NCBI GenBank assembly: GCA_043803685.1 | Contig: JAZDJU010000113.1 | Span: 1-12,964 of the forward strand | Length of the DNA stretch: 12,964 nt | Reading direction: 5' to 3' | DNA from: Candidatus Omnitrophota bacterium | Lineage (GTDB): Bacteria > Omnitrophota > Omnitrophia > Omnitrophales > Aquincolibacteriaceae | Shown: piece by piece, positions 1-12,964 of the stretch | Layout of the letters: each line of letters opens with the position of its first letter | Position numbering within the stretch: position 1 is the first letter of the stretch | Notes under the pieces: generated by a model | What the model saw: only the letters and a program-made list of their open reading frames with translations | Databases searched by the model: none | What the model was told of the DNA's origin: nothing | Made by a program: the position numbers and the translations under genes

Positions 1-73
1 CTTTCCCTTGCTGGATCTCGACCTCTCGTAATTTAAGAATGATCTCCTCGGGTTGAAGCCTTTTTCTCGCCAT
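1..73 (-). CDS. IS3-family transposase OrfA, N-terminal fragment (partial)
   Basis: Manual translation MARKRLQPEEIILKLREVEIQQGK resembles the typical IS3 OrfA N-terminus (RKR..PEEII.KLRE.E). Confidence 0.85.
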   Translation of the reverse strand, partial: MARKRLQPEEIILKLREVEIQQGK

Positions 74-140
74 CTTTTTGCCCCTTTCTGTTGCCAGAAG
101 TCTATCACAACAACTGGCTCAGTTTTCGGGGGCTAGGTCA
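1..140 (-). mobile_element. IS3-family (IS407-group-like) insertion sequence, left end; continues beyond the window
   Basis: The - strand from 140 reads TGACCTAGCCCCCGAAAACTGAGCCA, matching the TG...CCCC pattern of IS3/IS407-group terminal IRs, followed by SD GAAAGGGG (88-81) and an OrfA-type start at 73. Confidence 0.85.
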
Positions 141-142
141 AA

Positions 143-358
143 GGGGCTCATTTCAAGCCTTCATGTCCCAGCTGTGGGAAGGGAGAGCGCATGTTGTATT
201 ACCTGGTTTATGCGGCTGGGGGGAAGATGCTGCTTCGGGCGGATTGCGGTGCTTGCCGGAAGTCACATTCCTTATTCTTTCCCGGCATCCGCAGGATTTG
301 TGAGCGGTGCGGCTGGGAGGGCGATTTTTTCCTTATATTTCAAAAAAATACGTCTTGA
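143..358 (+). pseudogene. Zn-ribbon-like ORF with three CxxC motifs, probably 5'-truncated by the IS
   Basis: Frame absent from the ORF track: GAHFKPSCPSCGKGERMLYYLVYAAGGKMLLRADCGACRKSHSLFFPGIRRICERCGWEGDFFLIFQKNTS*. It is open from the IS junction; an in-frame TAG lies inside the IS end (134-136) and no start codon precedes the first CxxC. Confidence 0.55.
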
Positions 359-588: not shown

Positions 589-642
589 CCTCCCGACCAC
601 CGTCTCTCTTCTTAGGGAAGTTTCGAGACGGTGGTCGGGAGG
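589..642. other. Candidate origin of transfer (oriT): perfect 18-bp inverted repeat with MOBC-like nic motif
   Basis: CCTCCCGACCACCGTCTC (589-606) pairs with GAGACGGTGGTCGGGAGG (625-642). The arms contain GGTGGTCGGG, similar to the CloDF13 nic GGGTG/GTCGGG as I recall it, and the site lies ~0.8 kb upstream of a MOBC-type relaxase. Confidence 0.6.
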
Positions 643-781: not shown

Positions 782-859
782 GGACTAGAAAAATATTTTC
801 TATTGGGGGAATGTGCAAAAGTGACCGACAGACCCCCCTGTTTTTGCCCAATACTATAG
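782..859 (+). repeat. Direct repeat copy 1 (78 bp); putative activator-dependent promoter of the mobilization operon
   Basis: 782-800 = 8232-8250 (19/19) and 810-859 = 8260-8309 (50/50), 72/78 overall. Contains -10-like TACTAT (852-857) with a poor -35 (CAGACC). Confidence 0.9.
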
Positions 860-932
860 AGAGAAAATTAAAGTGACAAGCCCAGACAATCAACCTGGGA
901 CGATTCCAAGAACCTAGACTGGAGATAAAACC

Positions 933-1349
933 ATGAAACTGCTTGAAACGAGTGAGCCTCGCGGAAGTGGAAAGTCGTTTGTGGGTGTTTTGAAAGGTGT
1001 GTTTGTGGAGTTTGCGTGCTGGATCAGGAAGGGACTGAGTCTTGGGGTGATGCTTTTTCTGGCGTTCACCACTCTTTCTTTTCTGAACCGGGGTGCAGGG
1101 TATCTGGAAGCTTCTTTGGCAAAGACTGAGGTTAGGAAACAGTCCGAAGCGGCCGTGCCGTCGTTCTCGCGGGGAAATGTGAACGTGAGACAGGCATTTG
1201 TCGGTCAGGTGTCGGGGCGTGTTTACCGGCCAGCGGTTATTCCGGAAGCCTACAGTCCGAAAAATACCCGGGATACGCTCAGGGAGTCGGGATATCTGGT
1301 GAACGAACTGGAGTCGTTTGCCAGGACACTTGCGCGTTTCGGACGGTAA
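933..1349 (+). CDS. Hypothetical single-pass membrane protein (138 aa)
   Basis: SD GGAG before ATG; hydrophobic segment GLSLGVMLFLAFTTLSFL; first gene after repeat copy 1. Confidence 0.7.
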   Translation: MKLLETSEPRGSGKSFVGVLKGVFVEFACWIRKGLSLGVMLFLAFTTLSFLNRGAGYLEASLAKTEVRKQSEAAVPSFSRGNVNVRQAFVGQVSGRVYRPAVIPEAYSPKNTRDTLRESGYLVNELESFARTLARFGR

Positions 1350-1353
1350 CGGG

Positions 1354-1428
1354 TCTTCCGGCGTCTGAAGGGGTGATGGTCCTGCGTGTAGCGGGATCAT
1401 GCTCCTTCGGACGGAATATCCCGGAAGG
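1354..1428 (+). promoter_or_regulatory. Long G-U-rich hairpin upstream of the relaxase gene
   Basis: 1362-1385 pairs with 1391-1413 (23 bp, 5 G-U, one bulge, loop GTGTA). Outer CTTCCGG (1355-1361) pairs with CCGGAAG (1421-1427). No U-tract follows. Confidence 0.6.
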
Positions 1429-1444
1429 AACAGTAAAGGGATGA

Positions 1445-2206
1445 ATGAGCATGGAAGATATCACAAAAAACGAAACAGAACAGGGGAAGGCGTCGGAACG
1501 GGCTGCGGGTGCGGAACTGGTGGAACTTCAGGCAAGAGATATTGCGATGTTCCGGTTCATGAACGAGCAGGGGTATTTGGCGCACAGTCACCTCAAGTCC
1601 GCATTTTGGCAGACTTGTTCGGAAGAAGCCGGGGCGTGTCATCACCGGCTTGATAAGCTGGTCGCGGCGGGATATCTGGCCAAAGAGACCGGCGTGAAGA
1701 AAAAACTTTCGGTATATCGTTTGAGAGAAAAAGGGTTCGGCGAACTTCTGCGGCGAGGGTTGCGGAACGGCACGTCTCTTTTTAAATTGAACGGTTATCA
1801 CCGGACGAATATGGATCATGACCTGAAAGTAACGAACCTCCGAATCTTTTTCCGGAGGCACGGTCTTGACGGATGGACGAGTGAACGCGTTTTGAGACAG
1901 CGGGATTACTACCTCCATGTTCCGGACGGGCTTTTAACGGTGTATGAGGAAAGGATCGCGATCGAGCTTGAGAATTCGACGAAGGGACGAAAGCGTTACG
2001 AGGCGCTTTTCAAAAACTACGAGGCGTCGAAGGAGTACAGCCGCGTCTTCATGGTCCTGAATACCGAGATCATGGATTGGGTCATTGATCTTGAATACGA
2101 TCCGGCGAAGATCTGGTTTGTGGAGTATAAGACCCTTTTTCGGGAAGGTGAGAAGGCCATTTTCAGGAACAAAGCGGATACCTTCATCCTCTCCCAGATC
2201 CTATGA
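1445..2206 (+). CDS. Replication-relaxation (Replic_Relax / MOBC-type) relaxase
   Basis: N-terminal wHTH-like region (LQARDIAMF...RLDKLVAAGYL), HDLKV motif, and PD-(D/E)xK-like core VPDGLL...IAIELENSTK..KRY; directly upstream of a coupling protein. The start could be ATG 1451. Confidence 0.85.
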   Translation: MSMEDITKNETEQGKASERAAGAELVELQARDIAMFRFMNEQGYLAHSHLKSAFWQTCSEEAGACHHRLDKLVAAGYLAKETGVKKKLSVYRLREKGFGELLRRGLRNGTSLFKLNGYHRTNMDHDLKVTNLRIFFRRHGLDGWTSERVLRQRDYYLHVPDGLLTVYEERIAIELENSTKGRKRYEALFKNYEASKEYSRVFMVLNTEIMDWVIDLEYDPAKIWFVEYKTLFREGEKAIFRNKADTFILSQIL

Positions 2207-2212
2207 CGTTTC

Positions 2213-4201
2213 ATGGGAAAACCTGAAGGGGACTCGAGACAATCGCTTCTGGTGAAAGTCGTGACCGGGATCTTGATCAATATCCCGCTTACGGTCGCGG
2301 GTCTATTGCTCAAGTGGAGGAACTCTCCCGCGGGGAAAAACGTTCGTGCGTTCGTTCAAAAAAGTTTCGGGAGGATGAAGGAATTTTCCCCTTGGCGGAT
2401 CGTTTGTCTGATCGCAGGAACGGTGATTCTGATAGCGGGGCTCGCGGTCTTGGCGTGGGTGTTCTACAGGGCGGGAAATGTCCCGGAAGTTCGAAAGCCG
2501 CTTTCCGTTCGGTGGATCGTTTTAAAGGGGGCGCTCTACTACCTCTTTTATCTGGCGGCCCTGATGCCTTTTTTCCTGCCGGTGGCTTATTTTGCCTCTG
2601 CGGAGAAAGAACGGTTTTTAAAAGACGCCGGGAAAAAGCGGGAGCCAGAGCTTCTCGTGATGCGAAGAAACCGCCTGAGTTCGGACAAGTCGCGGTCCTA
2701 TCTCGGCGAGAGTTTGAGCGGCGGGGAGGCGGTTTATCTCACCTGCGAACAGCGCTCAATGCATGCCGAGGTTGTGGGCTCGACCGGGACCGGAAAAAGC
2801 GAGTCCGTTCTTTTGCCGCTCTTGGCGCATGACATCAGAAACGGAAGAGGGGCGATCGTGATCGACGGAAAAGGCGACCGCGAGCTTCTGGACCGGATCC
2901 ATTCCATTGTTGTTCGGGCGGATCGTCTCGAGGATTTTTACTTCTTCTCGCTCGCGAAACCTGATAAGTGCAACAGCTACAACCCGCTTCTAAGGGGGAA
3001 CGCTACGGAACTGAAAGACAAGATCATCGGAAGCATGATCTGGAACGAGGAGTTCTACCGGAAGATGGCGGAGCAGGCCATGCTGACGCTTTTAAAAGCT
3101 TTAAAGGAGCGTCCCTGCGAGAAAGGCTCGGACAAGCCTCCCACGATCCTGTTTAGTGAGGTTTACCGGTGTCTGACGGATTTTAAGGCGCTCCAAGAGC
3201 TCGCCAACGCGACTGTGGATCCCGAGACCAAAGGGGACCTCGGGAAAATGCTGGGCCGGTTCGATCAAAACCATAAGTTCCTCTCCGGGCTTATCGCGGA
3301 CCTTTACCTGACGTCCCGCAGCGAATTCTCAAAGCTCGTGGATACTCCTACGCCTGAGATCGATCTTCTAAAAATCTACAAAGGAAACAAGATCGTATAT
3401 TTCCAGCTCAATTTGCAGGGGTACGGAGAAACGGCAAAGCGCATGGGCCGTATGATCTTGCAGGATATCAGGACTGTTTCGGGTTATATCCAGTCCGATA
3501 TGTTGACTTCCGAGCGGCACTTTTTCCCGGTGTTCGTGGACGATGCGTCGAGCTTTCTTGACATCAATTTCATTGATTTCCTGAACAAGGCCCGCGCCGC
3601 AGGGTTCGGGATCATGTTGCTTCACCAGTCGCTCGGGGACCTCGTTGTGCGGCGCGACCCCTCGTTCCAACAACAAGTGATCGAAAATACCAATATCAAG
3701 ATCATTCTGAGGCAGGATGACCCCGATTCCGTGGAGAAACTCACGAAGATCGGAGGGACGAAGAAGACGTTGATCTCCACTTATCAAACGGAGCAGAAAT
3801 TCACCGGCAAGGATTTTACAGGGGTCGGCTCGATCCGCGAGGGGCAGGAATTCCGCATTGAACCGGACCTGATCCGGGGGCTCAAGAGAGGAGAGGCTGT
3901 TGTGATCCTCAAGAGCCCGGAGCTTTACACGGGGCACGTGAAGCTGGATTTCTTCGGGCATCCGTCGTATGTGGGGGATTTTAGGGCCCAGCATCCGCTT
4001 GTTGAGACTGCCGCAAAAAAGGAAGAACCTCCCGCAGCATTGCCGGCGGCGAAGCCTGAGGAAAATACCTCCCATGCTGTTGTGCCAGTCAGCGGCGGAA
4101 CCGAGACACCCCCGGCGACTAAAGAAAAGGAAACCAGAAAAGATCCCACAGGATGGATCAAAACCATGCAGCAGGAGAAAACAGGCGTAAAGTTACCGTA
4201 A
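2213..4201 (+). CDS. virD4: Type IV coupling protein (VirD4/TraD family)
   Basis: N-terminal TM segments; Walker A GSTGTGKS; IVIDGKGD; YNPL; Walker B FVDDAS; KARAAG, HQSLGDL and ENTNIKIILRQDD motifs; Pro/Ala/Glu-rich C-terminal tail. Confidence 0.92.
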   Translation: MGKPEGDSRQSLLVKVVTGILINIPLTVAGLLLKWRNSPAGKNVRAFVQKSFGRMKEFSPWRIVCLIAGTVILIAGLAVLAWVFYRAGNVPEVRKPLSVRWIVLKGALYYLFYLAALMPFFLPVAYFASAEKERFLKDAGKKREPELLVMRRNRLSSDKSRSYLGESLSGGEAVYLTCEQRSMHAEVVGSTGTGKSESVLLPLLAHDIRNGRGAIVIDGKGDRELLDRIHSIVVRADRLEDFYFFSLAKPDKCNSYNPLLRGNATELKDKIIGSMIWNEEFYRKMAEQAMLTLLKALKERPCEKGSDKPPTILFSEVYRCLTDFKALQELANATVDPETKGDLGKMLGRFDQNHKFLSGLIADLYLTSRSEFSKLVDTPTPEIDLLKIYKGNKIVYFQLNLQGYGETAKRMGRMILQDIRTVSGYIQSDMLTSERHFFPVFVDDASSFLDINFIDFLNKARAAGFGIMLLHQSLGDLVVRRDPSFQQQVIENTNIKIILRQDDPDSVEKLTKIGGTKKTLISTYQTEQKFTGKDFTGVGSIREGQEFRIEPDLIRGLKRGEAVVILKSPELYTGHVKLDFFGHPSYVGDFRAQHPLVETAAKKEEPPAALPAAKPEENTSHAVVPVSGGTETPPATKEKETRKDPTGWIKTMQQEKTGVKLP

Positions 4202-4226
4202 ACTGAATTCAGGATTTTAAAACAAT

Positions 4227-4267
4227 GGGGAAGGTCCGGGGCATGGCTCCGGGTCTTCCCCTTTTTT
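4227..4267 (+). terminator. Intrinsic terminator after the coupling protein gene
   Basis: GGGGAAGGTCCGGGGC-atg-GCTCCGGGTCTTCCCC (16 bp with G-U pairs) followed by TTTTTT. Confidence 0.8.
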
Positions 4268-4357
4268 ATTTTTCAGGGCTTTCAAAAAGGAGGTGATGGA
4301 AGAGAGAGGAGCGTTTTTCACGAAGTTCATTTCAAAACCAAAAAGGAGAAAAACAAC

Positions 4358-4858
4358 ATGGAAACTCAAAATACAGCTCAAGACGCGGAACAAGAGATCG
4401 TGGTCCTCGCGGATATTCCGAGATCCAAGAATGACATCTACCGGATCTCGCAAAAGAACTACAAGGGGAACCGTTACCTCGATCTCCGGATCTTTTTCCG
4501 GGCCAAGGACGGCAAGGCCATGTTTTTGCCGAGCGGAAAAGGCGTGTGTTTCGCGGAGAAATTCCGCGAAGCCATTATCGCGGGGCTCATCAAGGCAAGG
4601 ACGGCCCCTCAGGCCGTAAGGACCGAGGGCGTGAGTGTCGCAAGCGTCACGGTTTGCGATATTCCGGCTTCAGAAACCGAGATCTTCCGGATCTCCAAAG
4701 GATGCGGGCAAAGGGCCACGTTCGTGGATATTCGGAAGTTCTATAGCAAGGACGGCACGTATTTCCCGTCCAAGCGAAAGGGAGTCTCGATCCCGGAGTC
4801 CGTGCTGGAAGACGTGATCCTGGGGCTCATGCCCTCCAGCCCGGCGCGCGCCGTGTAA
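4358..4858 (+). CDS. Protein with two tandem PC4/YdbC-like ssDNA-binding domains (166 aa)
   Basis: SD AAAGGAG. Internal repeat DIPRSKNDIYRISQKNYKGNRYLDLRIFF...PSGKGVCF / DIPASETEIFRISKGCGQRATFVDIRKFY...PSKRKGVSI; both halves show the PC4 pattern (Y/F)(L/V)D(L/I)R..(F/Y)...P..KG(V/I). Confidence 0.85.
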   Translation: METQNTAQDAEQEIVVLADIPRSKNDIYRISQKNYKGNRYLDLRIFFRAKDGKAMFLPSGKGVCFAEKFREAIIAGLIKARTAPQAVRTEGVSVASVTVCDIPASETEIFRISKGCGQRATFVDIRKFYSKDGTYFPSKRKGVSIPESVLEDVILGLMPSSPARAV

Positions 4859-4887
4859 GGGGATGACGGATTCAAAAAAATCCAAAA

Positions 4888-4926
4888 GGGGAGACGGTGC
4901 TTAAACGTGCTGTCTCCCTATTTATT
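4888..4926 (+). terminator. Intergenic terminator-like hairpin
   Basis: GGGGAGACGGTGC-ttaaac-GTGCTGTCTCCCT (13 bp with G-U pairs), followed by an AT-rich tract. Confidence 0.55.
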
Positions 4927-4944
4927 TGAAAGGAGGTGAATCCC

Positions 4945-5037
4945 ATGAGGTTGATCGTTCGGAGAAGTGATTTTGAGAAACACGCCGACGTAATCGGCCG
5001 GTTCCAGAAAAACGGCTGGGAGATCGTGGTTCGCTGA
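4945..5037 (+). CDS. 30-aa small protein, below the ORF track cutoff
   Basis: Full SD AAGGAGGTGA, then atccc-ATG; translates as MRLIVRRSDFEKHADVIGRFQKNGWEIVVR*. Confidence 0.65.
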   Translation: MRLIVRRSDFEKHADVIGRFQKNGWEIVVR

Positions 5038-5066
5038 AACGAAAGAAACAAATAAACCAAACGCAA

Positions 5067-5107
5067 AAAAGAGGCGGTATTCCCGTCAAAGGGAGTCCGC
5101 CTCTTTT
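5067..5107 (+). terminator. Intergenic hairpin, bidirectional-terminator-like
   Basis: AAAAGAGGCGG-t-ATTCCC-gtcaaa-GGGAGT-CCGCCTCTTTT. Confidence 0.6.
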
Positions 5108-5132
5108 CGCGTCTAAAAAGGAGGGTGCCACC

Positions 5133-5795
5133 ATGAGACGAAAACTATCGGTTCGAGATTGGCCGGAGACCGAACGGCCTGCGGTAAGAGCGGTTGAGAA
5201 AGGGATCGAAGCATTGTCTGATGCGGAGCTTCTATCCCTCATCCTCAAGAAATGCACCTACGAGCAAACGGAAGTGGGTGTTGCTTTGGATCTTTTGAAT
5301 AAAGCCGGAGGCCTCCGGCAGCTCTTTGATCTCAGGGATGTGCCTGAATATCAGAGGGTTACGCTTCAGGCCGTGAGGGAGATCGGGCGGCGTGTCTTGA
5401 AACAGGGGGTGATCGGGCAAAACTTCGTCCGAAGTCCCCAAGCGGTCACCGATTACCTCACGGCCAGTCTCCGGGACCTTAAGCGAGAGGTCTTTAAGGT
5501 GATCTTTCTCGACAAGGGTTTAAGGATCCTGGGGGAAAAAGACATGTTCTTCGGGACGATCGATGAGGCGGCGGTGCATCCCCGGGAGATTGTCCGCGAA
5601 GCGATTTTTCAAAACGCGGTGAGCCTCGTGTTGGTCCATAACCACCCTTCGGGAAAAGTCGAGCCGAGCCGCGAGGATTACGAGATCACGCAGAAGATCA
5701 AGGCCGCCTGCCAGACGGTTTCGATCCGGATCCTCGATCACATCATCATCGGAGAGAACCAGTACTTCAGTTTCTCGGAACGAAATCAACTTTAA
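5133..5795 (+). CDS. radC: RadC family JAB/MPN-domain protein
   Basis: N-terminus VRDWPETERP...ALSDAELLSLIL; E.F.VIFLD; GTIDEAAVHPREIV; JAB motif HNHPSG...PSREDY...LDHIIIG; SD AAGGAGG. Confidence 0.95.
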   Translation: MRRKLSVRDWPETERPAVRAVEKGIEALSDAELLSLILKKCTYEQTEVGVALDLLNKAGGLRQLFDLRDVPEYQRVTLQAVREIGRRVLKQGVIGQNFVRSPQAVTDYLTASLRDLKREVFKVIFLDKGLRILGEKDMFFGTIDEAAVHPREIVREAIFQNAVSLVLVHNHPSGKVEPSREDYEITQKIKAACQTVSIRILDHIIIGENQYFSFSERNQL

Positions 5796-5809
5796 GAAAG
5801 GAGTCTGCT

Positions 5810-5977
5810 ATGACGCGCAAGGAATTATTAAAGGGACTGTTCCTTCAAATTCAGAACCTTCGAGAACGTATCTCCGTCGCGGATGAGGAATGCCCAGCGG
5901 GTGAGGATGAAAGCGAACTTCATCGTCTTGAAGAAAGGCTCGAGATGCTGACCGACGGGATGTGTGGCAGAAGATGA
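5810..5977 (+). CDS. 55-aa hypothetical helical-hairpin protein, not in the ORF track
   Basis: SD AAAGGAG just after the radC stop; MTRKELLKGLFLQIQNLRERISVADEECPAGEDESELHRLEERLEMLTDGMCGRR*. Confidence 0.7.
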   Translation: MTRKELLKGLFLQIQNLRERISVADEECPAGEDESELHRLEERLEMLTDGMCGRR

Positions 5978-5983
5978 CGAGTT

Positions 5984-6012
5984 GGGAGGCGGGGATTTTA
6001 TTCCCGCCTCCC
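5984..6012 (+). other. Intergenic GC-rich hairpin
   Basis: GGGAGGCGGGGAT-ttt-ATTCCCGCCTCCC (13 bp, one G-U); no U-tract. Confidence 0.6.
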
Positions 6013-6055
6013 GTGATTCCACTTGAACGAAATAAAAAACAGAAAGGGAAGGGTT

Positions 6056-6661
6056 ATGAACCTTAAGGAATGGATGAAACAATTTGAAGGGCAATTTGAT
6101 GACAGGGCGCTTGGCTATATGACCGTTCACAAAGCGAATATCGTTGCACAATTACAGGATTCGGAGACGCGGGAGATCCACCTGCACCAGCTGGAATATA
6201 AGGCAAAGAATGCTTATGACCTGCGTGTCGAAGGGACCAAAAGCTCCAGGGGAAAAAACGTCATGCGGGATGGGGGAGAAACCATTCGCGATTTTTTCAA
6301 GGATGTCGAGATGATCTTTGAATATTCGAGAAAACAGGCGCTTGAGGACGGAGTTCTTGTTGACATGTCTGCGGCCGCGAGGGAAGCGGGTATCCGTTAT
6401 CCGGTAGCCGTCACCCAGGCAGTGTTCACCATTTTGAACGATACCAGGGTTTCCGGCCAGGATCTGAGCGGTCGAACGTGGGATATGCTTATGATCTTCA
6501 GAACGCATATTCGTGCGGCTTCGGGGGATGAGATCCATTTCGCGCCGCTATTTTTAATGGAGGACGGCGCTAAACCCGAGCCTGTTCCGATGTGGGCGAA
6601 ATGCGGGCCGGGTGATACGGCAGATCCCGTGATCACCATCCTGCTGGAAAACCAAGATTGA
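6056..6661 (+). CDS. DUF6573-like mobile-element protein with an N-terminal extension
   Basis: Start moved to ATG 6056 (purine-rich SD). The C-terminal ~125 aa carry YSRKQALEDGVLVD..AREAG..PVAVT..GQD..GR.WD.L..CGPGD..PVITILL, a pattern I recall as DUF6573. Confidence 0.75.
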   Translation: MNLKEWMKQFEGQFDDRALGYMTVHKANIVAQLQDSETREIHLHQLEYKAKNAYDLRVEGTKSSRGKNVMRDGGETIRDFFKDVEMIFEYSRKQALEDGVLVDMSAAAREAGIRYPVAVTQAVFTILNDTRVSGQDLSGRTWDMLMIFRTHIRAASGDEIHFAPLFLMEDGAKPEPVPMWAKCGPGDTADPVITILLENQD

Positions 6662-6677
6662 AAGGAGAGATAAACCC

Positions 6678-7016
6678 ATGATCCATGCGTTCTTAAAAGA
6701 AGAACTGAAAGCGATGCTTCGGTTTCACAAGCGGGTTTTGCTTGCGATCCTGAAGGCGTTGGGTGCGTGTCTCCGTTACGGGTTATGGCTTCTACCGTGG
6801 ATCTTTTTCGCGGCCACCGTGTGGAAGCCTTTGGCCTCAGGCTGGGAAGTTCTTACCCGAGATCCTCCCTCGTCCCAGGCGATGCCGTTTTATCCGTTGT
6901 TTTATGGGGGCATGGCGGAGTCCAAAAAATCCATGGACCTGGAAACGATCCAAAACAAGATCGATTCCGGCATGAGGACTGTCGAAAGGATATCAAGACA
7001 GCTAAAGCAGAAGTAA
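6678..7016 (+). CDS. Hypothetical single-pass membrane protein (112 aa)
   Basis: SD AAAGGAG; hydrophobic segment YGLWLLPWIFFAATVW; followed by a terminator. Confidence 0.75.
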   Translation: MIHAFLKEELKAMLRFHKRVLLAILKALGACLRYGLWLLPWIFFAATVWKPLASGWEVLTRDPPSSQAMPFYPLFYGGMAESKKSMDLETIQNKIDSGMRTVERISRQLKQK

Positions 7017-7035
7017 GTAACAGTGATCGAAAAAC

Positions 7036-7076
7036 GGCGGGGGAGATACGTCTCTCCCGCCTGTTCAAATTTTTTT
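7036..7076 (+). terminator. Terminator-like hairpin ending the accessory block
   Basis: GGCGGGGGAGA-tacg-TCTCTCCCGCC (11 bp, one G-U), followed by a T-rich tract. Confidence 0.65.
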
Positions 7077-7104
7077 CTGTGTTTTATGACCATCTATCGA
7101 CTTC

Positions 7105-7133
7105 TTGACATTATAGGACGTATTGGGTAGCAT
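7105..7133 (+). promoter_or_regulatory. Putative sigma70 promoter
   Basis: Perfect TTGACA (7105-7110), 17-nt spacer, TAGCAT (7128-7133); sits right after a terminator and points to the HTH gene. Confidence 0.65.
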
Positions 7134-7572
7134 ATGTCTCGCTTATCCAGGTTCGAATAAGAGCGAATCAAGCTCACGAATGGGATTTTTTTAAAGCCGG
7201 ATCCTTTGGGATCGGGCCGTTTTGGAAATAGAAGACCTCAACCCAAGAAGGTCTCGTTTCCGCGGCTTGGCTGCCTGAATGAGCGGGAAGCATCGTCTTC
7301 CTCAATTGCTCGCCCGAGACCGCTTGAAGGTCCTGCTGCGTCACATAACTGTTTCAGACAAACCACAGAGCGGAGTTTTGTGTAAACTCCTTTGAGGATC
7401 TCCGGTGAATCTGGAACCACCATTATGCCGTGTGGTTCCGGGTTCGGATACGGCAGCGCGGAGGATCCCTTTCCTTTAGCATCTCTCTCTTTCTCCAGGT
7501 CTGGTTTCACGAGCACCCCTCTTTTCCTCATAATCTTCTCCCAGGAAATTTTTTTGTTTTTTTAGTCTTACG

Positions 7573-7606
7573 AAGCGGGTAACCCTCCGGGCTGCTCGCT
7601 TTTTTT
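7573..7606 (+). terminator. Terminator/attenuator-like hairpin upstream of the HTH gene
   Basis: AAGCGGGTAACCC-tcc-GGGCTGCTCGCTT running into a 7-T tract (7600-7606). Confidence 0.6.
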
Positions 7607-7651
7607 GTGTCCTCGCTTTGGTTCCGCATAGCGGAAAGCGGGGACACAACA

Positions 7652-8254
7652 GTGTTAAATTCAAAATCCGGGGACGAAGCACCGGATGTTTCAGGATCCA
7701 GTCATAAGCGAAGGACAAGAGTACGGGAGATCGATTTTTCGAGGGTGGAAGGAACGCGGCCCGAAGACCCCCTCCATCCTTTCGAGTTGGAGGTGCGGGA
7801 GAAATTGGCCGGTCCGGCGGGTTCTTCCGATGATCTTGCCGCGAAAGAGCACCGGGTTCTTGGGCGCAGAAAAATAACGGCAACCCATGCCCGGTTGGTC
7901 CGTCTTTCCCGGGAAGGGATGCTTACGGAAAGACAGCAAACCTATTTCGATCTCTTTTACGTCGACGGTCGTTCGGACAAAGAGATCGCCTCGCGTCTTG
8001 GCGTTTCCCGGAGCACGGTCCGCGATTTCCGTCAGGAAATTCATCGGAGGATGCGGCACTTTATTCTAGAGAAAGAATCCGTCCGGCGCATGCTTCGATC
8101 CGTGAAATCGGCGGGGTTAACGAAAAAACAGAAGCAAATTTTCAGGCTCCGGTACCGGAAAGGGCTCTCGGTGGCTCAAATTGCGCGGGTTCTCGGAAGG
8201 CGTCCTCGCGCCATTTATGCGCTTCTCGAACGGACTAGAAAAATATTTTCCTGA
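7652..8254 (+). CDS. Putative transcriptional regulator with two sigma-70 region-4-like HTH domains
   Basis: LTERQQTYFDLFYVDGRSDKEIASRLGVSRSTVR and LTKKQKQIFRLRYRKGLSVAQIARVLGRRPRAIY both fit the sigma4/LuxR-type pattern. Start placed at GTG 7652 (SD-like GCGGGGA), uncertain; the ORF is open from 7607. Confidence 0.8.
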   Translation: MLNSKSGDEAPDVSGSSHKRRTRVREIDFSRVEGTRPEDPLHPFELEVREKLAGPAGSSDDLAAKEHRVLGRRKITATHARLVRLSREGMLTERQQTYFDLFYVDGRSDKEIASRLGVSRSTVRDFRQEIHRRMRHFILEKESVRRMLRSVKSAGLTKKQKQIFRLRYRKGLSVAQIARVLGRRPRAIYALLERTRKIFS

Positions 8255-8309
8255 GGAGAAATGTGCAAAAGTGACCGACAGACCCCCCTGTTTTTGCCCA
8301 ATACTATAG
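8232..8309 (+). repeat. Direct repeat copy 2 (78 bp); putative activator-dependent promoter of the T4SS operon
   Basis: 72/78 identical to 782-859; overlaps the last codons of the HTH gene; TACTAT at 8302-8307. Confidence 0.9.
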
Positions 8310-8401
8310 GGGGAAGTGAGGCCGACCCGTCAAAACAGGATCGAGGCAATGCCTCCCAAAGGGGTCCCAGAGCCTCCTTCCCCTCAACCATGGAGGAAGC
8401 G

Positions 8402-8713
8402 ATGAAAGGTCGATTTTTAAAACTGCGGCGTGTTCTTGTGGGAGTCGGATTCCTGCTCATCCAGACCCGGCTTTGTTACGCGGAAGCGGGTTCTGAGGCA
8501 GATCTCCAGTCATTTCTTCAGCAGATCGGGGATTTCATGATCCGCTCGATCGGTCCGGGAGTTTGCGTGATCGGGGTCGCCATTGCCGGTGTGTCCATGG
8601 CGCTGGGCGATGAACAGGGAATGCGCCGGGGAGCGCTTGCCGCGGGAGGCGGGGCTCTCATCATGCTTTCGAGGGCGATCCTCGATTTAATCCAGAACGC
8701 AGCTCATTTCTAG
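8402..8713 (+). CDS. virB2: VirB2/TrbC-like pilin (103 aa)
   Basis: SD GGAGG before ATG 8402; signal peptide ending LCYA; two Gly-rich hydrophobic helices; lies before virB3/virB4. Confidence 0.8.
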   Translation: MKGRFLKLRRVLVGVGFLLIQTRLCYAEAGSEADLQSFLQQIGDFMIRSIGPGVCVIGVAIAGVSMALGDEQGMRRGALAAGGGALIMLSRAILDLIQNAAHF

Positions 8714-8723
8714 GGAGATATCG

Positions 8724-9011
8724 ATGAAACATCTTAAGGTTTACCGAAAGATTCACGAGCGAAATAAGATCCTGGGGCTTGAATTCCCGGATCTGCTCGT
8801 TTTGGTTCTGCTCTATCTCGGAGTGTTCCTTTTCTCGAAAAACCTGCTCCTGAATCTCTTTGTGGTCGGCGTTGCCTATTTCGTTCTTCGTCTCTATAAA
8901 AAGGGGAAGCCCTCGCACTGGACCGCGAGCGTCTTCCGTTTTCTTTTCAAAACCCGCTACTACGGTCAAAAACGGGAACACCCGAGGGAGCTGGATCATG
9001 AAGAGCGCTAA
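8724..9011 (+). CDS. virB3: VirB3-like inner membrane protein (95 aa)
   Basis: VYRKI...KILGLE..DL then two TM helices; between pilin and VirB4, overlapping the virB4 start. Confidence 0.75.
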   Translation: MKHLKVYRKIHERNKILGLEFPDLLVLVLLYLGVFLFSKNLLLNLFVVGVAYFVLRLYKKGKPSHWTASVFRFLFKTRYYGQKREHPRELDHEER

Positions 9012-11517
9012 CCTTCTCCGGATACGGGACCTCCTCCACTCTGAATCCCGGATCCCTTTTTACAAACAAGCGGATCTTTACTCGATCGAGGACGATATTT
9101 TGATCGGGGTGACCGGGACGATCGGCTGCGGTTTCAGGGTGCCGGGTCGCGACCTGCTCCTCGAAAGCGACGGAGCGATCGAGCATTTCGAGAGCCGTGC
9201 CCGGAAACTCTGGAACTCGCTTCCGACGGGAACCTCGCTTCATTTCATCGTTAAATCCGAGGAAGGGGATGAAGAGGCTCTGAGGTCGTTTGAGGAATCT
9301 CTTGCCGGTCAGGGGGATTTCGCTCGAAAGATCGCTCATGCGAAAGCGGCTTCTTACCGGGAGCGTCCCTTTCTCAGGCGTCAGGTGTTTCTTTTTATCG
9401 TGGTTCGTCCCGCCGCAAAACGAAATCCCCGGTCTTTCTTACCGGATCTTTTCTCGGTGTTCGGCAAAAAATCCAGACTATCCGCGCGGTCGGATTACGA
9501 GACTTCGAAGAAAGAGCTTCAGAGCCTATCCGCCCGGATCCTGGCCGGATTTTCCGATATCGGGTTCCGTCTGGAGAAAATCAGGGAGCAGGAGCTTCTC
9601 CGTTATCTTTACGAGCTTTTAAATCCCGCGTATTCAAAAGAGATCGTGCCGTTTGATAAGAGCGGGATCGTCGAAAAAGGGGAGTGGCGCGGGGAGGAGA
9701 CGCTCCGCTCCCGGCTGCTGCTTACTCCTCCCGTCGTCGAGGACCGTTTCTTTTACCTGGACCGTTATTTCCACGAAATCCTGAATCTTCGGCTGCTCCC
9801 GGATCACACCCATCTGAAAGCCATGCGAGATTTTGAGCGCGCGCTCGGCCGCAATTACTTTATTTCCATCACGCTCGAAGTCCCGGATCAGGATCGTGAG
9901 CGTGCTTCTTTGAAAAGACAGGGGAATTTCGCGAAGGCCCAGGAGTTTTTCGCGAGAACGCGGGACCATGAGGCGGGGGCCCGGGCCGTTGAATCGGACG
10001 CGCTTTTGACGGAGCTCGCGCAAACCGGGGACAAGCTCCTGAAATGTTCCATGGCGGTCATGCTCCGCGAAAAAACACGGCGTGATCTCGAGAAACGCGC
10101 TGAGGAAATACTTCGCGTGTTCCCGCGTCTTGGGGACGCTCAAGGCATCCGCGATCACATGAACCATGACCGTTTGTTTTTATCGTTCCTGCCGCTTCAG
10201 GGGCATGAGAATCCTCTCATGTTTCTCGTGCGCTCCGAGGTGCTGACCCATCTCTTGCCCTTTCAGGCGAGCTGGCGCGGGACGGAGAAGACCGGACTTC
10301 TTCTTAAAACCTGGCGGGATGAACCGCTCAAGCTTGATCTCTTCGATGACCGTCTTCAAGCCAAACACGCGTTCATGCTTGGAACGACCGGCTCCGGGAA
10401 ATCTTTTTTCACGACCCATCTTCTGCTTCATTTCTTTATCGCGTCCAAAACCCACGAAGTGATCGTGATCGATGTCGGCGGCAGTTACCGGAAACTCGCG
10501 CATCTCCTGGGAGGGTCGTATCTCGAGGTGGAATGCTCGGAGGCGTACGCGCTGAATCCTTTCCCGAGGAAGAAGGCGCTTTTCCCCGAAGGCGGGGACC
10601 CGGACGCGACTTTCCTTCAGTTTTTGAAGGAGCTGCTCCAGAAAATGATCGGCCCGGAACGGAAATGGACGGCCAGTGAAAAGATGATCCTGGAACGCGC
10701 CATTCGCGAAGTTTACGACGCGATTCCCCAGGACCGGGCTCCTCTTCTCGGAGACGTCGAAAAAGCGCTTTTCCATTTCAAGGAAGGGGATGAGGACGAC
10801 AAGCGTAAAGCGTATCAATTCGCGAAGGAGCTTTGCCTTTTCACGAAAGGCGAATACGGAAGACTTCTCAACCGGGAGGGCGTCTTCGATTTTGATTCGC
10901 GGTTCACGGTCTTCGATCTCCGGAAGATCTCCCAGTATCCCGAGCTTCAGGAAATTCTCCTTTATATTATCCCGTTCGCGTTAAAGAGAAAATTCGAGAA
11001 CATCGCGATCAAGAAAATGCTTGTCCTGGATGAATGCTGGAGACTTCTCAAGGAATCCCAGGGGAGCGATCTGGTCGAGGTGTTCTATCGCACGGCCCGG
11101 AAGATGAACGCCGGAGTCCTTTCCATCTCCCAGAACCCCGAAGATTTTCTTGAAGCGAAGATCGCGAATGTCATCATCAATAACTCTCCTGTGAAATACC
11201 TGCTCAGGCTTCATAAAGGGCATGACCAGCTCGCGCGGTTCGGTCTAAATCCCAACGAGATCCAGGCTGTCCGGGAGCTTGAGGTCAGGCCCGGTCATTA
11301 TTCCGAGGTCTTTATCAAGTTCGACGAGCAGCCCGTGATCGTGAAGCTTGAACCAACGGCTCTTGAGTATTGGATCGCGACGACGGACCCCGTGGATCTG
11401 GCTGAAGAATCAAAGCAAATGCGCCAGGGCGCCGGAGGGCTGCTTGAGACTTTGGAAGGGCTCGCCCTCGAATTTCCGCATGGCGTCAAGAAAAGCGGGG
11501 AGGTGATCCGTGCGTAA
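8998..11517 (+). CDS. virB4: VirB4/TraC-family T4SS ATPase (839 aa)
   Basis: Start ATG 8998 with SD GAGGGAG; Walker A GTTGSGKS; VIVIDVGGSY; LNPF; Walker B LVLDECW; TARKMNAG...SQNPEDF. Confidence 0.95.
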   Translation: MKSANLLRIRDLLHSESRIPFYKQADLYSIEDDILIGVTGTIGCGFRVPGRDLLLESDGAIEHFESRARKLWNSLPTGTSLHFIVKSEEGDEEALRSFEESLAGQGDFARKIAHAKAASYRERPFLRRQVFLFIVVRPAAKRNPRSFLPDLFSVFGKKSRLSARSDYETSKKELQSLSARILAGFSDIGFRLEKIREQELLRYLYELLNPAYSKEIVPFDKSGIVEKGEWRGEETLRSRLLLTPPVVEDRFFYLDRYFHEILNLRLLPDHTHLKAMRDFERALGRNYFISITLEVPDQDRERASLKRQGNFAKAQEFFARTRDHEAGARAVESDALLTELAQTGDKLLKCSMAVMLREKTRRDLEKRAEEILRVFPRLGDAQGIRDHMNHDRLFLSFLPLQGHENPLMFLVRSEVLTHLLPFQASWRGTEKTGLLLKTWRDEPLKLDLFDDRLQAKHAFMLGTTGSGKSFFTTHLLLHFFIASKTHEVIVIDVGGSYRKLAHLLGGSYLEVECSEAYALNPFPRKKALFPEGGDPDATFLQFLKELLQKMIGPERKWTASEKMILERAIREVYDAIPQDRAPLLGDVEKALFHFKEGDEDDKRKAYQFAKELCLFTKGEYGRLLNREGVFDFDSRFTVFDLRKISQYPELQEILLYIIPFALKRKFENIAIKKMLVLDECWRLLKESQGSDLVEVFYRTARKMNAGVLSISQNPEDFLEAKIANVIINNSPVKYLLRLHKGHDQLARFGLNPNEIQAVRELEVRPGHYSEVFIKFDEQPVIVKLEPTALEYWIATTDPVDLAEESKQMRQGAGGLLETLEGLALEFPHGVKKSGEVIRA

Positions 11518-12964
11518 TCACCCTGCGACTCGAAAAACGCGAGTGCTTCTCATCCTGCTTCTGGTCCTGCTGGTCGGGGCAGGACATGCGGCGTACGCCA
11601 CCATGCCGACTTTTGACGCAGTGAACGCGGCCTTGAATGAAATTCGGAACGCGGTCATGCAGTCCCAGTTCGCCCAGGATATTGTGATCGCGATGGACCA
11701 GCTCGATCGGCTGAAAGAGCAATACCAGGAGCTTCTGCGGTTCAATTCCGGGATCGACAGCGTCCTCAAAGTATTCGTTGGGGATTCTTACCGGAACCTT
11801 TTCCGATTCGGGAATACCGGTCTCCGTGACGCTTTCGGCGATTTCGGGGGGATCACACCGAGCATTGAATTTCTGGAGCAGGCAGCAAGCCCCCAAGACA
11901 TCCGGACGTCTCTGGAGGCGATCACGGGCGCGATTCCGGAGTCGAGTGAACGCCCTTACATTCCCTTTGAAGAGATGCAGGTGGTCGAGGGATTTCAGTT
12001 CGCACAGGAGATCCGGAAAGCGGGGGACGAAACCCGGAACGCAGCCCAGTCGATTTCCGAACAGGCGCAGGACGCGAGTCCCAAAGGGGCCGCCCGGCTC
12101 GGGAATGAGGCGCTGTCGCGGATGATGGTCCTCTCGCAGCAGAATCAGGAGGTTTTGGCGAAGATACTTGAACTTCAGGCGGTCCAGGTCGAACAGGTCT
12201 CCCGTGAAGAAAAACGCCTGGAATCGGAGCGTTTGAAATATCTGGAAGATGCGGGGGCGTATCTCTCCGGTCTCGAGGAGACAAGAATAACCATGCTTCC
12301 TCAAGGATTTCTCTTTACCAATACGCTTCAGATCCCCGATCTTTTCAGTGGCCCTTTCGCGATCACCTTCCACTTGGGATTTGTGATCTATTCCCTGATG
12401 CTCATCGCGGCCATTCTCCACGAAAACCTTCAGGCGTTTCGCGGGAAATCCGATTACTTGGGACTTTTCCTGAGAGCGCTGGCGGTGACCGCGCTTCTTG
12501 TGATCTATGACCGTTTTTTTAACTGGATCGTTTATGGAATGGACCTTCTCTCCAAGTCCGTGCTTCCTGAAAATGAGTTTCGGGAGGTTATTCGGGCCGT
12601 ATTTCAGGATATCGGCGGCAAGCGTGATTTCGGGGTCCTGAAATTCCTTTCCATTATCACGACGCTGAATTTCATCACCTACGCCGTGGCCCTGGCGCTT
12701 TTGGGCGTTCTCACGTGGCTTCGTTTTGTTTTTCTTTCGCTCCTTTACGTGCTCGGGCCGATCCTGATCGGGTTCGGAATCTATAAAGCGACAGCGGATG
12801 GACTGCTCTTTTGGCTGAGAAGTCTTGTCGCGGTTTCTTCCTGGACCGTCGTTCTTTCCATTCTCATGAAAGTGATCTCCACGATGAATCTGACGGCCGT
12901 GTATTTGCCGCAGGAAGCCAATAGCGCCTCAGTCCTGGCGGCCAACCTGCTTTTCATCATTCTC
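11510..12964 (+). CDS. VirB5/TrbJ-like domain in frame with a VirB6/TrbL-like polytopic membrane domain (3'-partial)
   Basis: GTG 11510 with SD GGAGGTG; manual translation shows no stop in 485 codons to the window end. Signal peptide, then MPTFDAVN and a Gln/Glu-rich coiled coil; from ATG 12293, multiple TM helices including LLYVLGPILIGFGIY...FWLRSLVAVSSW. Confidence 0.8.
   Translation, partial: MRNHPATRKTRVLLILLLVLLVGAGHAAYATMPTFDAVNAALNEIRNAVMQSQFAQDIVIAMDQLDRLKEQYQELLRFNSGIDSVLKVFVGDSYRNLFRFGNTGLRDAFGDFGGITPSIEFLEQAASPQDIRTSLEAITGAIPESSERPYIPFEEMQVVEGFQFAQEIRKAGDETRNAAQSISEQAQDASPKGAARLGNEALSRMMVLSQQNQEVLAKILELQAVQVEQVSREEKRLESERLKYLEDAGAYLSGLEETRITMLPQGFLFTNTLQIPDLFSGPFAITFHLGFVIYSLMLIAAILHENLQAFRGKSDYLGLFLRALAVTALLVIYDRFFNWIVYGMDLLSKSVLPENEFREVIRAVFQDIGGKRDFGVLKFLSIITTLNFITYAVALALLGVLTWLRFVFLSLLYVLGPILIGFGIYKATADGLLFWLRSLVAVSSWTVVLSILMKVISTMNLTAVYLPQEANSASVLAANLLFIIL

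Follow-up and report, generated by a model that had tools for sequence, protein, structure and literature searches.

A promoter-like element is duplicated ahead of both transfer operons

The window analysed here, a stretch of 12,964 nucleotides, is contig C113 of a 2.9-Mb metagenome-assembled genome (the own genome, G000) of a Candidatus Omnitrophota bacterium. It carries part of an integrative and conjugative element (ICE), in which a mobilisation (mob) operon, a regulator gene and the start of a mating-pair (tra) operon opening with virB2 follow one another on the forward strand. A relaxase (its match lying below the curated cut-off), a coupling protein and VirB4-type mating-pair genes are present; the contig ends inside the tra operon, and relatives of the element end in integrase-like or serine-recombinase genes. 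A 78-bp element occurs twice in the window (782-859 and 8232-8309), with 72/78 positions identical and the copies 7450 bp apart. Copy 1 ends 73 nt 5' of the ATG at 933, while copy 2 covers the last codons of the regulator gene (7652-8254) and ends 92 nt 5' of the virB2 ATG at 8402. Identity of both copies ends sharply after TACTATAG, and each contains TACTAT (852-857 and 8302-8307), a poor -35 and a GACC-GACA-GACC run.

An earlier reading of this DNA from its letters (the sequence-only reading) had described this arrangement, and its distances, its poor -35 at both copies and its overlap of copy 2 with the end of a tandem region-4 gene all held; the regulator matches PF08281 (E 1.6e-19) and PF04545 in two stretches each. 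Other details stood in part. The gene at 933, named there as the first mobilization gene, is the conserved first gene of the operon, although it has no Pfam or NCBIfam match and the relaxase-like gene (1445) and coupling protein gene (2213) come after it. The GACC-GACA-GACC run exists but is not a conserved repeat, its CCGAC being the window element's own variant of the site predicted for the first helix-turn-helix (HTH1). Likewise, the "good -10" is present in the window without being family-wide: TAnnnT with A at -11 (A-11) occurs in 18/34 elements, where A-11 and T-7 are kept and -12, -9 and -8 vary, and the other 16 have TCCCAT, TCCTAT, CTATAT or ATCTAT.

Each element carries its own pair of sites

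In all 15 elements whose mob-operon start lies on the same contig (15/15), DNA from the 3' end of the regulator gene recurs before that operon, 7.2-22.5 kb away and at 83-96% identity. Only 5/200 random host-genome anchors have a second copy (>=50 nt, >=80%, within 20 kb). Three elements contain a third copy inside the tra operon, and pairs spanning contigs of the own genome match at 50/58 (C77/C73) and 55/58 (C131/C23) positions. The pairs are largely private: mob copies match their own tra copy at 41-51/52 positions, versus values down to 25-30/52 for the best match in another, distant element.

Mismatches in 20 copy pairs amount to 8.5% at -56..-33, 27.5% at -32..-25, 4% at -24..-5 and 58% beyond, in blocks drawn after inspecting the data. 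Two conserved blocks joined by a looser spacer form a two-part promoter pattern and not a scar. The single-HTH element L040 conserves the proximal site only, and an AT-rich block at the upstream end is nearly invariant across 49 clade-2 sites, though it lies outside the search pattern.

Several other site types were considered and set aside. A sigma54-type site lacks GG at -24, and in a sigma32-type site the 22-nt spacing from TTGAA to CCCAT is too long for the consensus. Reading the site as a palindrome for a dimer (TTC-N9-GAA) suits clade 2 alone, whereas direct orientation accounts for both clades. A FliA-type -10 is a weak lead that fits one clade only (GCCCAATA compared with the FliA form GCCGATAA).

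Recognition-helix residues track the bases of two sub-sites

We compared recognition helices with site DNA in 34 elements, 33 of them with two HTHs, with the DNA register set blind to the proteins. Duplicates (L008, L042, L043, L046) and a second subfamily (L029-L039) were left out, and L040 was excluded from two-HTH counts. Residues are numbered 171 and 172 after their sigmaE equivalents, of which R171 contacts G-31' and S172 contacts G-34 (PMC1540707).

Where residue 171 of HTH1 is Arg, the fifth base of sub-site 1 is C in 22/22 elements, compared with 3/12 where it is not. Residue 172 of HTH1 goes with G when it is Arg or Lys (20/24) and with C when it is Asp (2/2). For residue 172 of HTH2, the covarying position is base two of the other sub-site, which lies 13 bp upstream: Asp or Glu pairs with C (4/4) and Arg or Lys with G (14/14). 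In a mutual-information scan with average product correction, these three residues ranked 1, 1 and 2 of 178 columns for their own DNA positions, and cross controls were flat or weak. The window variant conforms (R124/D125 with CCGAC), and element L001 shares HTH1 and sub-site 1 (CCGAC) with the window while its HTH2 and sub-site 2 differ. As judged from this comparison, recognition-helix residues track the bases of two sub-sites spaced by 13 bp, and they do so in the register seen in the sigmaE/-35 crystal structure.

Further copies precede excision genes and occur on satellite-like loci

A scan for additional copies, which the sequence-only reading had suggested, located them before xis and integrase, serine recombinase and relaxase-recombinase satellite genes. 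In the own genome, copies remote from regulator genes include one of C73 type on C34, 5' of xis and a tyrosine integrase, and one of C23 type on C82, where xis and an integrase beside tRNA-Met follow (both integrases Pfam-confirmed); on C54 a serine recombinase is preceded by a C35-type copy. Contig C31 has a tandem of three different variants, followed by a relaxase-like gene, a gene for 92 aa and a serine recombinase; the 18 kb read there contain neither mating-pair genes nor a regulator. The own assembly yielded no third C113-type or C39-type copy.

Across the order, two site patterns found 20 sites in 12/96 genomes and 66 sites in 23/96, with 0 in reversed controls. We inspected all 20 sites of the first pattern and the 29 new loci returned for the second, 46 distinct loci together. 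At 37/46 a marker gene (in one case a second-subfamily regulator) follows just downstream on the same strand; three lie inside tra operons and three at contig ends. Of 12 hand-picked satellite-like loci, judged from about 3 kb each outside the own genome, 11 carry rows of 2-7 sites, each best matching a different ICE variant. Variants within arrays are 12-47/52 identical, and four loci (L131, L136, L137, L142) mix both clades. It is likely that these small relaxase-recombinase elements carry variant rows so that many helpers can induce them. Contrary to the sequence-only reading, the predicted regulon is not self-contained, since it reaches excision genes and, in trans, satellites.

Loci L133, L139 and L143 are minimal elements: a promoter, what remains of the first mob gene and a serine recombinase, no relaxase match being in view.

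The regulator belongs to a family with one to three region-4 units

A family profile search recovered 70 representatives at E 1e-10 or better, which have a motif in common at the N-terminal side and, after it, between one and three region-4 units. The family is present in 26/401 sampled genomes of the phylum, all from one order (26/96), and the closest named relative of the window protein comes from a Candidatus Omnitrophica bin. The own genome has five such elements, with different site variants and regulators 32-78% identical to the window protein. In the main family a regulator homologue lies directly 5' of virB2 at 37/38 loci (duplicates counted), the 38th being at a contig edge, while the second subfamily (11 loci) lies before a relaxase-like gene in 9/11. 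No relative was found in plasmids and none confirmed in viral contigs.

The N-terminal domain has no family or PDB match, and Pfam found no Sigma70_r2 match at regulator genes. Searches with hhalign, Pfam and PDB did not bear out a by-eye likeness of the N-terminal motif to sigma region 3.2, which is not used as evidence. Foldseek with the regulator model returned nothing at E 0.001 or better, its top rows being sigma factors aligned via region 4; ESM Atlas gave solely small region-4-type clusters at ~0.9, PHROG matches span the HTH stretch only, and the top PDB match is 2lvs.

Members with three units (P0023, P0029) and with one (P0047, P0057, P0060, P0062, L040) predict three sub-sites or one, respectively. 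The second subfamily (for example L035 and L033/L117) stands 5' of a relaxase-like gene and a serine recombinase. On G032:C20 a clade-1 ICE site stands just upstream of a second-subfamily regulator gene, a layout that suggests a relay in which an ICE activator would turn on a satellite's own activator. The other sigma factors of the own genome are RpoD, a group-2 sigma, a FliA-like sigma and an extracytoplasmic function (ECF) sigma. In addition, G000:C110 (L074) encodes a 400-aa sigma factor with regions 2-4 and an additional C-terminal extension.

Start site, leader and probable gating of the regulator

The sequence-only reading placed transcription starts near 864 and 8314. A start at about 858-862 and 8308-8312, some 5 nt earlier, is at least as likely in our folding analysis, since the later start would trim a conserved leader stem, which begins within two bases of the element's final T, and would close the virB2 ribosome-binding site. 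The Shine-Dalgarno (SD) sequence of virB2 is unpaired at 0.83 if the RNA starts at 8308 and at 0.25 if it starts at 8314, with the same direction in most elements (exceptions L024, L025, L027 and L028). The choice between the leader stem and its pairing with the SD might thus form a translational switch set by the RNA start. Before xis or recombinase genes in L103, L149 and L104, SD-like purine runs begin within a few bases after the element. With the earlier start, sub-site 1 would fall near -35, the place of a docked sigma region 4, and a region-2 partner as in Tn916 Sig7-Sig8 would be needed. TACTAT is a plausible sigma70 -10 in the window's clade, and in the sigma70 register the predicted footprint of the protein is centred near -42, resembling class II activators such as SetCD (PMC4344509).

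No site copy was found within ~1.6 kb upstream of the regulator gene (best 20-27/52 in 34 elements, four of them with short upstream DNA), which argues against a direct positive loop as in Tn916.

A proposed mechanism and its alternatives

Taken together, the element-specific pairs, the covariation of helices with bases, the copies before xis and integrase genes and the copies on satellites that lack a regulator lead us to propose that each ICE places a private variant of the site before its mobilisation, mating-pair and often excision genes, and that the adjacent sigma4-type protein binds it and is the master activator, a proposal we hold to be quite probable. The comparative data give good support to the view that the tandem protein recognises the duplicated element and controls the DNA-processing and mating-pair operons together. 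In the mechanism we envisage, the regulator would normally be held low by a terminator in its own leader. Once the regulator is made, HTH1 would read a 5-mer at a -35-like position and HTH2 another one, placed 13 bp further upstream in the same orientation, each by the residue-base rules of sigmaE region 4, and RNA polymerase would be recruited to promoters without a consensus -35 and, in about half of the family, also without a consensus -10. The doubled reading head would give co-resident ICEs, such as the five in the own genome, largely separate switches, and satellites with a relaxase and a recombinase could gather rows of variants and so become inducible by several helper types. Polymerase engagement is the weakest step. 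Because no sigma2 partner was found, we favour a single-chain activator working with a host sigma, to which we would give about an even chance.

Several observations weigh against this proposal. Close kin are inseparable, as the mob copies of C39/C113, C73/L014 and L013/L022 match a relative at least as well as they match their own tra copy, and 3/46 inspected loci lack a downstream marker gene. The covarying pairs were first spotted by eye; their global mutual-information ranks are 3, 5 and 14 or lower of 5696, with structurally meaningless pairs ranking higher. On supported branches of a tree built without the helices there are just 3, 3 and 2 independent contrasts, mostly in the predicted direction, with no sign test significant and one HTH1-172 contrast sometimes going the wrong way. 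In the automatic register, G is missing from four elements with a basic HTH1 residue 172; two of these, L020 and L021, fit only with a 12-bp spacing, which agrees with their shorter linker but was adopted post hoc. Finally, tandem HTH proteins can be plain DNA binders, as the top PDB match 2lvs illustrates, and activation, as opposed to repression, is inferred.

How polymerase is engaged divides the proposal itself. The protein could instead be the region-4 half of a split sigma factor, like Sig7 of Tn916, with HTH1 at -35 on the polymerase flap and a region-2 partner reading the clade-specific downstream block; we regard this version, which shares in the confidence given to the proposal as a whole, as possible though doubtful. 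Sub-site 1 follows the group-IV sigma code, and its placement at -35 would put the start at 8310-8312, which would keep the leader stem, an open virB2 SD and the SD-like purine run before the xis and recombinase genes of L103, L149 and L104; moreover, 16/34 elements lack A-11, and Sig7-8 offers a precedent (bioRxiv 10.64898/2026.10.01.756105). However, no region-2-only gene was found within the elements (PF04542 in 6 genomes, PF12645 in 5), a search in which a small diverged Sig8-type partner could be missed, and clustering of 553 open reading frames (ORFs) that came from 16 elements, measured 40-230 aa and were not shadowed by longer frames gave no conserved small helical one. Sigma region 3 gives no alignment with the N-terminal domain, the retention of A-11 and T-7 with variable -12, -9 and -8 in 18/34 elements is as expected for a group-1/2 sigma, and a start at the sigma70 position would still transcribe part of the xis SD.

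The remaining alternatives question the activator itself. Covariation speaks for binding and not for its sign, TACTAT is usable as a sigma70 -10 in the window's clade, and binding over its own last codons could curb read-through from the promoter at 7105, so that the protein might be a repressor or roadblock over the -35 region of the transfer promoters and its own gene end. We nevertheless consider this improbable, since promoters without a consensus -35, half of them without a -10, would hardly need repressing, a terminator precedes the gene in 30/30 elements as fits an activator held off, satellites with variant rows and no regulator would profit from helper induction and not from silencing, and several elements have separate XRE- and LacI-type genes upstream. 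Slightly less probable still is that another factor, the zinc-ribbon protein or a host sigma, reads the promoter and that the sigma4 protein is merely linked to it: neighbours would covary through linkage alone, most long loci have a zinc-ribbon gene ahead of the mob copy (11 members aligned), and the host has five region-2 sigma factors, one of them FliA-like. Yet the covariation centres on two residues predicted from the sigmaE structure and splits by domain (C113 compared with L001) while cross controls stay flat or weak, and L040 shows no zinc-ribbon gene, the window only a truncated one. The view that the repeats are recombination scars, already raised in the sequence-only reading, or neutral duplicates homogenised by gene conversion is one we reject as very unlikely. 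Copy 1 does contain apparent last regulator codons, as a duplication would, and close relatives have variants in common; against this, copy spacing varies over 7.2-22.5 kb with differing cargo and no recombinase gene seen between copies, copies stand on unlinked contigs and in arrays of dissimilar variants (12-47/52), mismatches concentrate in the spacer, and bases track helix residues.

Comparison with known systems

Master activators of ICEs are already known, and so are split sigmas, activators that resemble region 4 and have cognate sites, and islands that heed a helper's activator. The closest parallel is Tn916 Sig7-Sig8 (Orf7-Orf8; bioRxiv 10.64898/2026.10.01.756105), which is likewise ICE-encoded and sigma-region-4-like; it exerts positive control over excision and conjugation genes and is expressed at a low level until read-through, as is predicted for the Omnitrophota protein. 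A subunit with sigma region 4 is common to this system and to the split sigma factors Sig7-8 and SigO-RsoA. In contrast to Tn916, the Omnitrophota protein has two region-4 units (one or three in relatives) and a novel N-terminal domain, with no adjacent Sig8-like gene found; its sites would form several dispersed promoters instead of one joined by circularisation, and there is no auto-activated promoter upstream of the regulator.

The Ltr/RinA/ArpU activators, especially LtrA (PMC3753634), share a small basic activator gene directly upstream of its target, a direct-repeat site at their own coding end and cognate specificity, which covariation predicts here. LtrA is similar to Sigma70_r4 and was reported as the sole element-encoded factor needed, so that a region-4-like protein bound at its own gene end can activate alone. 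Those systems concern a phage late operon with a single promoter, whereas here the context is an ICE type IV secretion system with 2-3 or more promoter copies and tandem HTHs, and no Ltr/RinA/ArpU sequence match extends beyond the region-4 stretch.

SetCD of SXT/R391 and AcaCD of IncA/C elements are master activators whose motif coincides with a poor -35, or lies directly 5' of it, ahead of xis, mob and tra genes, and mobilisable islands carry that motif and are induced in trans (PMC4344509, PMC4207636, PMC8373056), as is predicted here. SetCD and AcaCD are FlhD/FlhC-like heteromers, however; neither the regulator (25 best of 37 families) nor the zinc-ribbon family has an FlhD/FlhC Pfam match. 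In the material compared, their islands answer to one activator family, and no rows of 2-7 specificities occur. In E. coli sigmaE and group IV sigmas the same residues, 171 and 172, track the same bases of a GAAC-type 5-mer (PMC1540707). Unlike these, the Omnitrophota protein lacks region 2, would use the code twice 13 bp apart, and has residues that are hypervariable between elements. Hitcher elements with multiple origins of transfer (oriTs) widen their helper range (PMC11389934), and the satellites similarly gather helper-specific cis sites; because the gathered sites are predicted promoters, the widening would act on induction rather than on nicking.

In the open-access literature searched we found no tandem region-4 head whose two-address code differs from one co-resident ICE to another, nor satellite promoter rows of multiple specificities, and the accessible part of an Omnitrophota mobile-element preprint (10.64898/2026.05.20.726742) describes neither feature. 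The system is a candidate master switch and DNA code for a conjugative-element family of an uncultured phylum, present in 26/96 genomes of one order. Natural variants pair changes of 1-2 residues with changes of 1-2 bases, a possible source of orthogonal activator-promoter pairs, and the arrays suggest that satellites widen their helper range by gathering inducible promoters. If no region-2 partner exists, transcription starting at promoters without A-11 poses a mechanistic question beside the split sigma of Tn916. More speculatively, the protein may be a novel kind of promoter-recognition subunit, a sigma factor in which region 2 was lost and region 4 multiplied to between one and three units, giving a programmable head with two addresses that would direct RNA polymerase to promoters the housekeeping sigma cannot open, with private ICE codes facing satellite key rings of up to seven variants; if true, an arms race over transcriptional induction would be readable directly from sequence.

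Other features of the window

The features of the window are collected in Table 1; no Rfam match was found in it.

Table 1. Features of the window, by position in the 12,964-nt stretch.
Feature	Positions	Strand	Remarks
C-terminal remnant of conserved zinc-ribbon gene	137..358	+	5' end cut by insertion-sequence end (window 1-140)
Perfect 18-bp inverted repeat, putatively oriT-like	589..642	.	also upstream of satellite arrays
Promoter-like element copy 1, before mobilisation operon	782..859	+	duplicated in 15/15 elements with operon start in view
AT-rich upstream block, putatively UP-element-like	782..799	+	same bases in copy 2 encode regulator C-terminus
Sub-site 2 TGTGC, predicted HTH2 contact, copy 1	812..816	+	
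Sub-site 1 CCGAC, predicted HTH1 contact, sigmaE -35..-31 register, copy 1	825..829	+	PMC1540707
Downstream conserved block with TACTAT (putative -10/start region), copy 1	840..859	+	4% mismatch between paired copies
First gene of mobilisation operon, hydrophobic stretch, no family match (Pfam, NCBIfam)	933..1349	+	conserved in 12/14 long loci
Replication-relaxation (MobC-like) relaxase-like gene	1445..2206	+	PF13814 E 7.7e-5, NF041423 E 1.3e-16, both below curated cut-offs
Type IV coupling protein (TraD-like)	2213..4201	+	Pfam/NCBIfam
Double PC4-fold protein (single-stranded-DNA-binding fold)	4358..4858	+	Pfam
RadC/JAB protein	5133..5795	+	Pfam/NCBIfam
DUF6573 gene and conserved small membrane-type gene (6678-7016)	6023..7016	+	
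Sigma70-type promoter TTGACA-17-TAGCAT, predicted for regulator gene	7105..7133	+	similar sites in 15/30 elements, strict threshold
Intrinsic-terminator-like hairpin and T run directly 5' of regulator start codon	7574..7606	+	30/30 elements with enough upstream DNA
Regulator, 200 aa: N-terminal domain, HTH1 (R124/D125), long helix, HTH2 (Y189/A190)	7652..8254	+	model pLDDT (predicted local distance difference test) 85.9
Promoter-like element copy 2	8232..8309	+	sub-site 2 8262-8266, sub-site 1 8275-8279, downstream block 8290-8309
virB2 leader stem; 3' arm can alternatively pair with ribosome-binding site 8392-8396	8309..8384	+	folding
Mating-pair operon: VirB2 (8402), VirB3/TraL (8724), VirB4 (8998), VirB6-like (11510, runs off contig)	8402..12964	+	

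The first 140 nt of the window also occur at the ends of contigs C33 and C82, and ORFs on C33 resemble IstA/IstB by our reading. The zinc-ribbon gene that they truncate encodes a three-knuckle protein of no Pfam family and precedes the mob promoter in most relatives. The inverted repeat at 589-642, with the core CGACCA...TGGTCG, lies upstream of the mob promoter in 5/15 ICEs and of four satellite loci (L101, L128, L129, L145), and is a candidate oriT common to ICEs and satellites. At the other end of the window, the frame 11510-12964 (at least 485 aa) corresponds to two separate ORFs of ~255 and ~280 aa in most relatives, so that the C113 copy appears to hold a fusion or a lost stop. Downstream of virB10 in the tra operon of relatives (L024, L028, L040, L009), ORFs named by reading as an outer-membrane channel, a membrane glycosyltransferase, an HlyD-type protein and a sugar-nucleotide transferase-like protein recur in 9-10/14 long loci, an unusual conserved cargo of the transfer operon.

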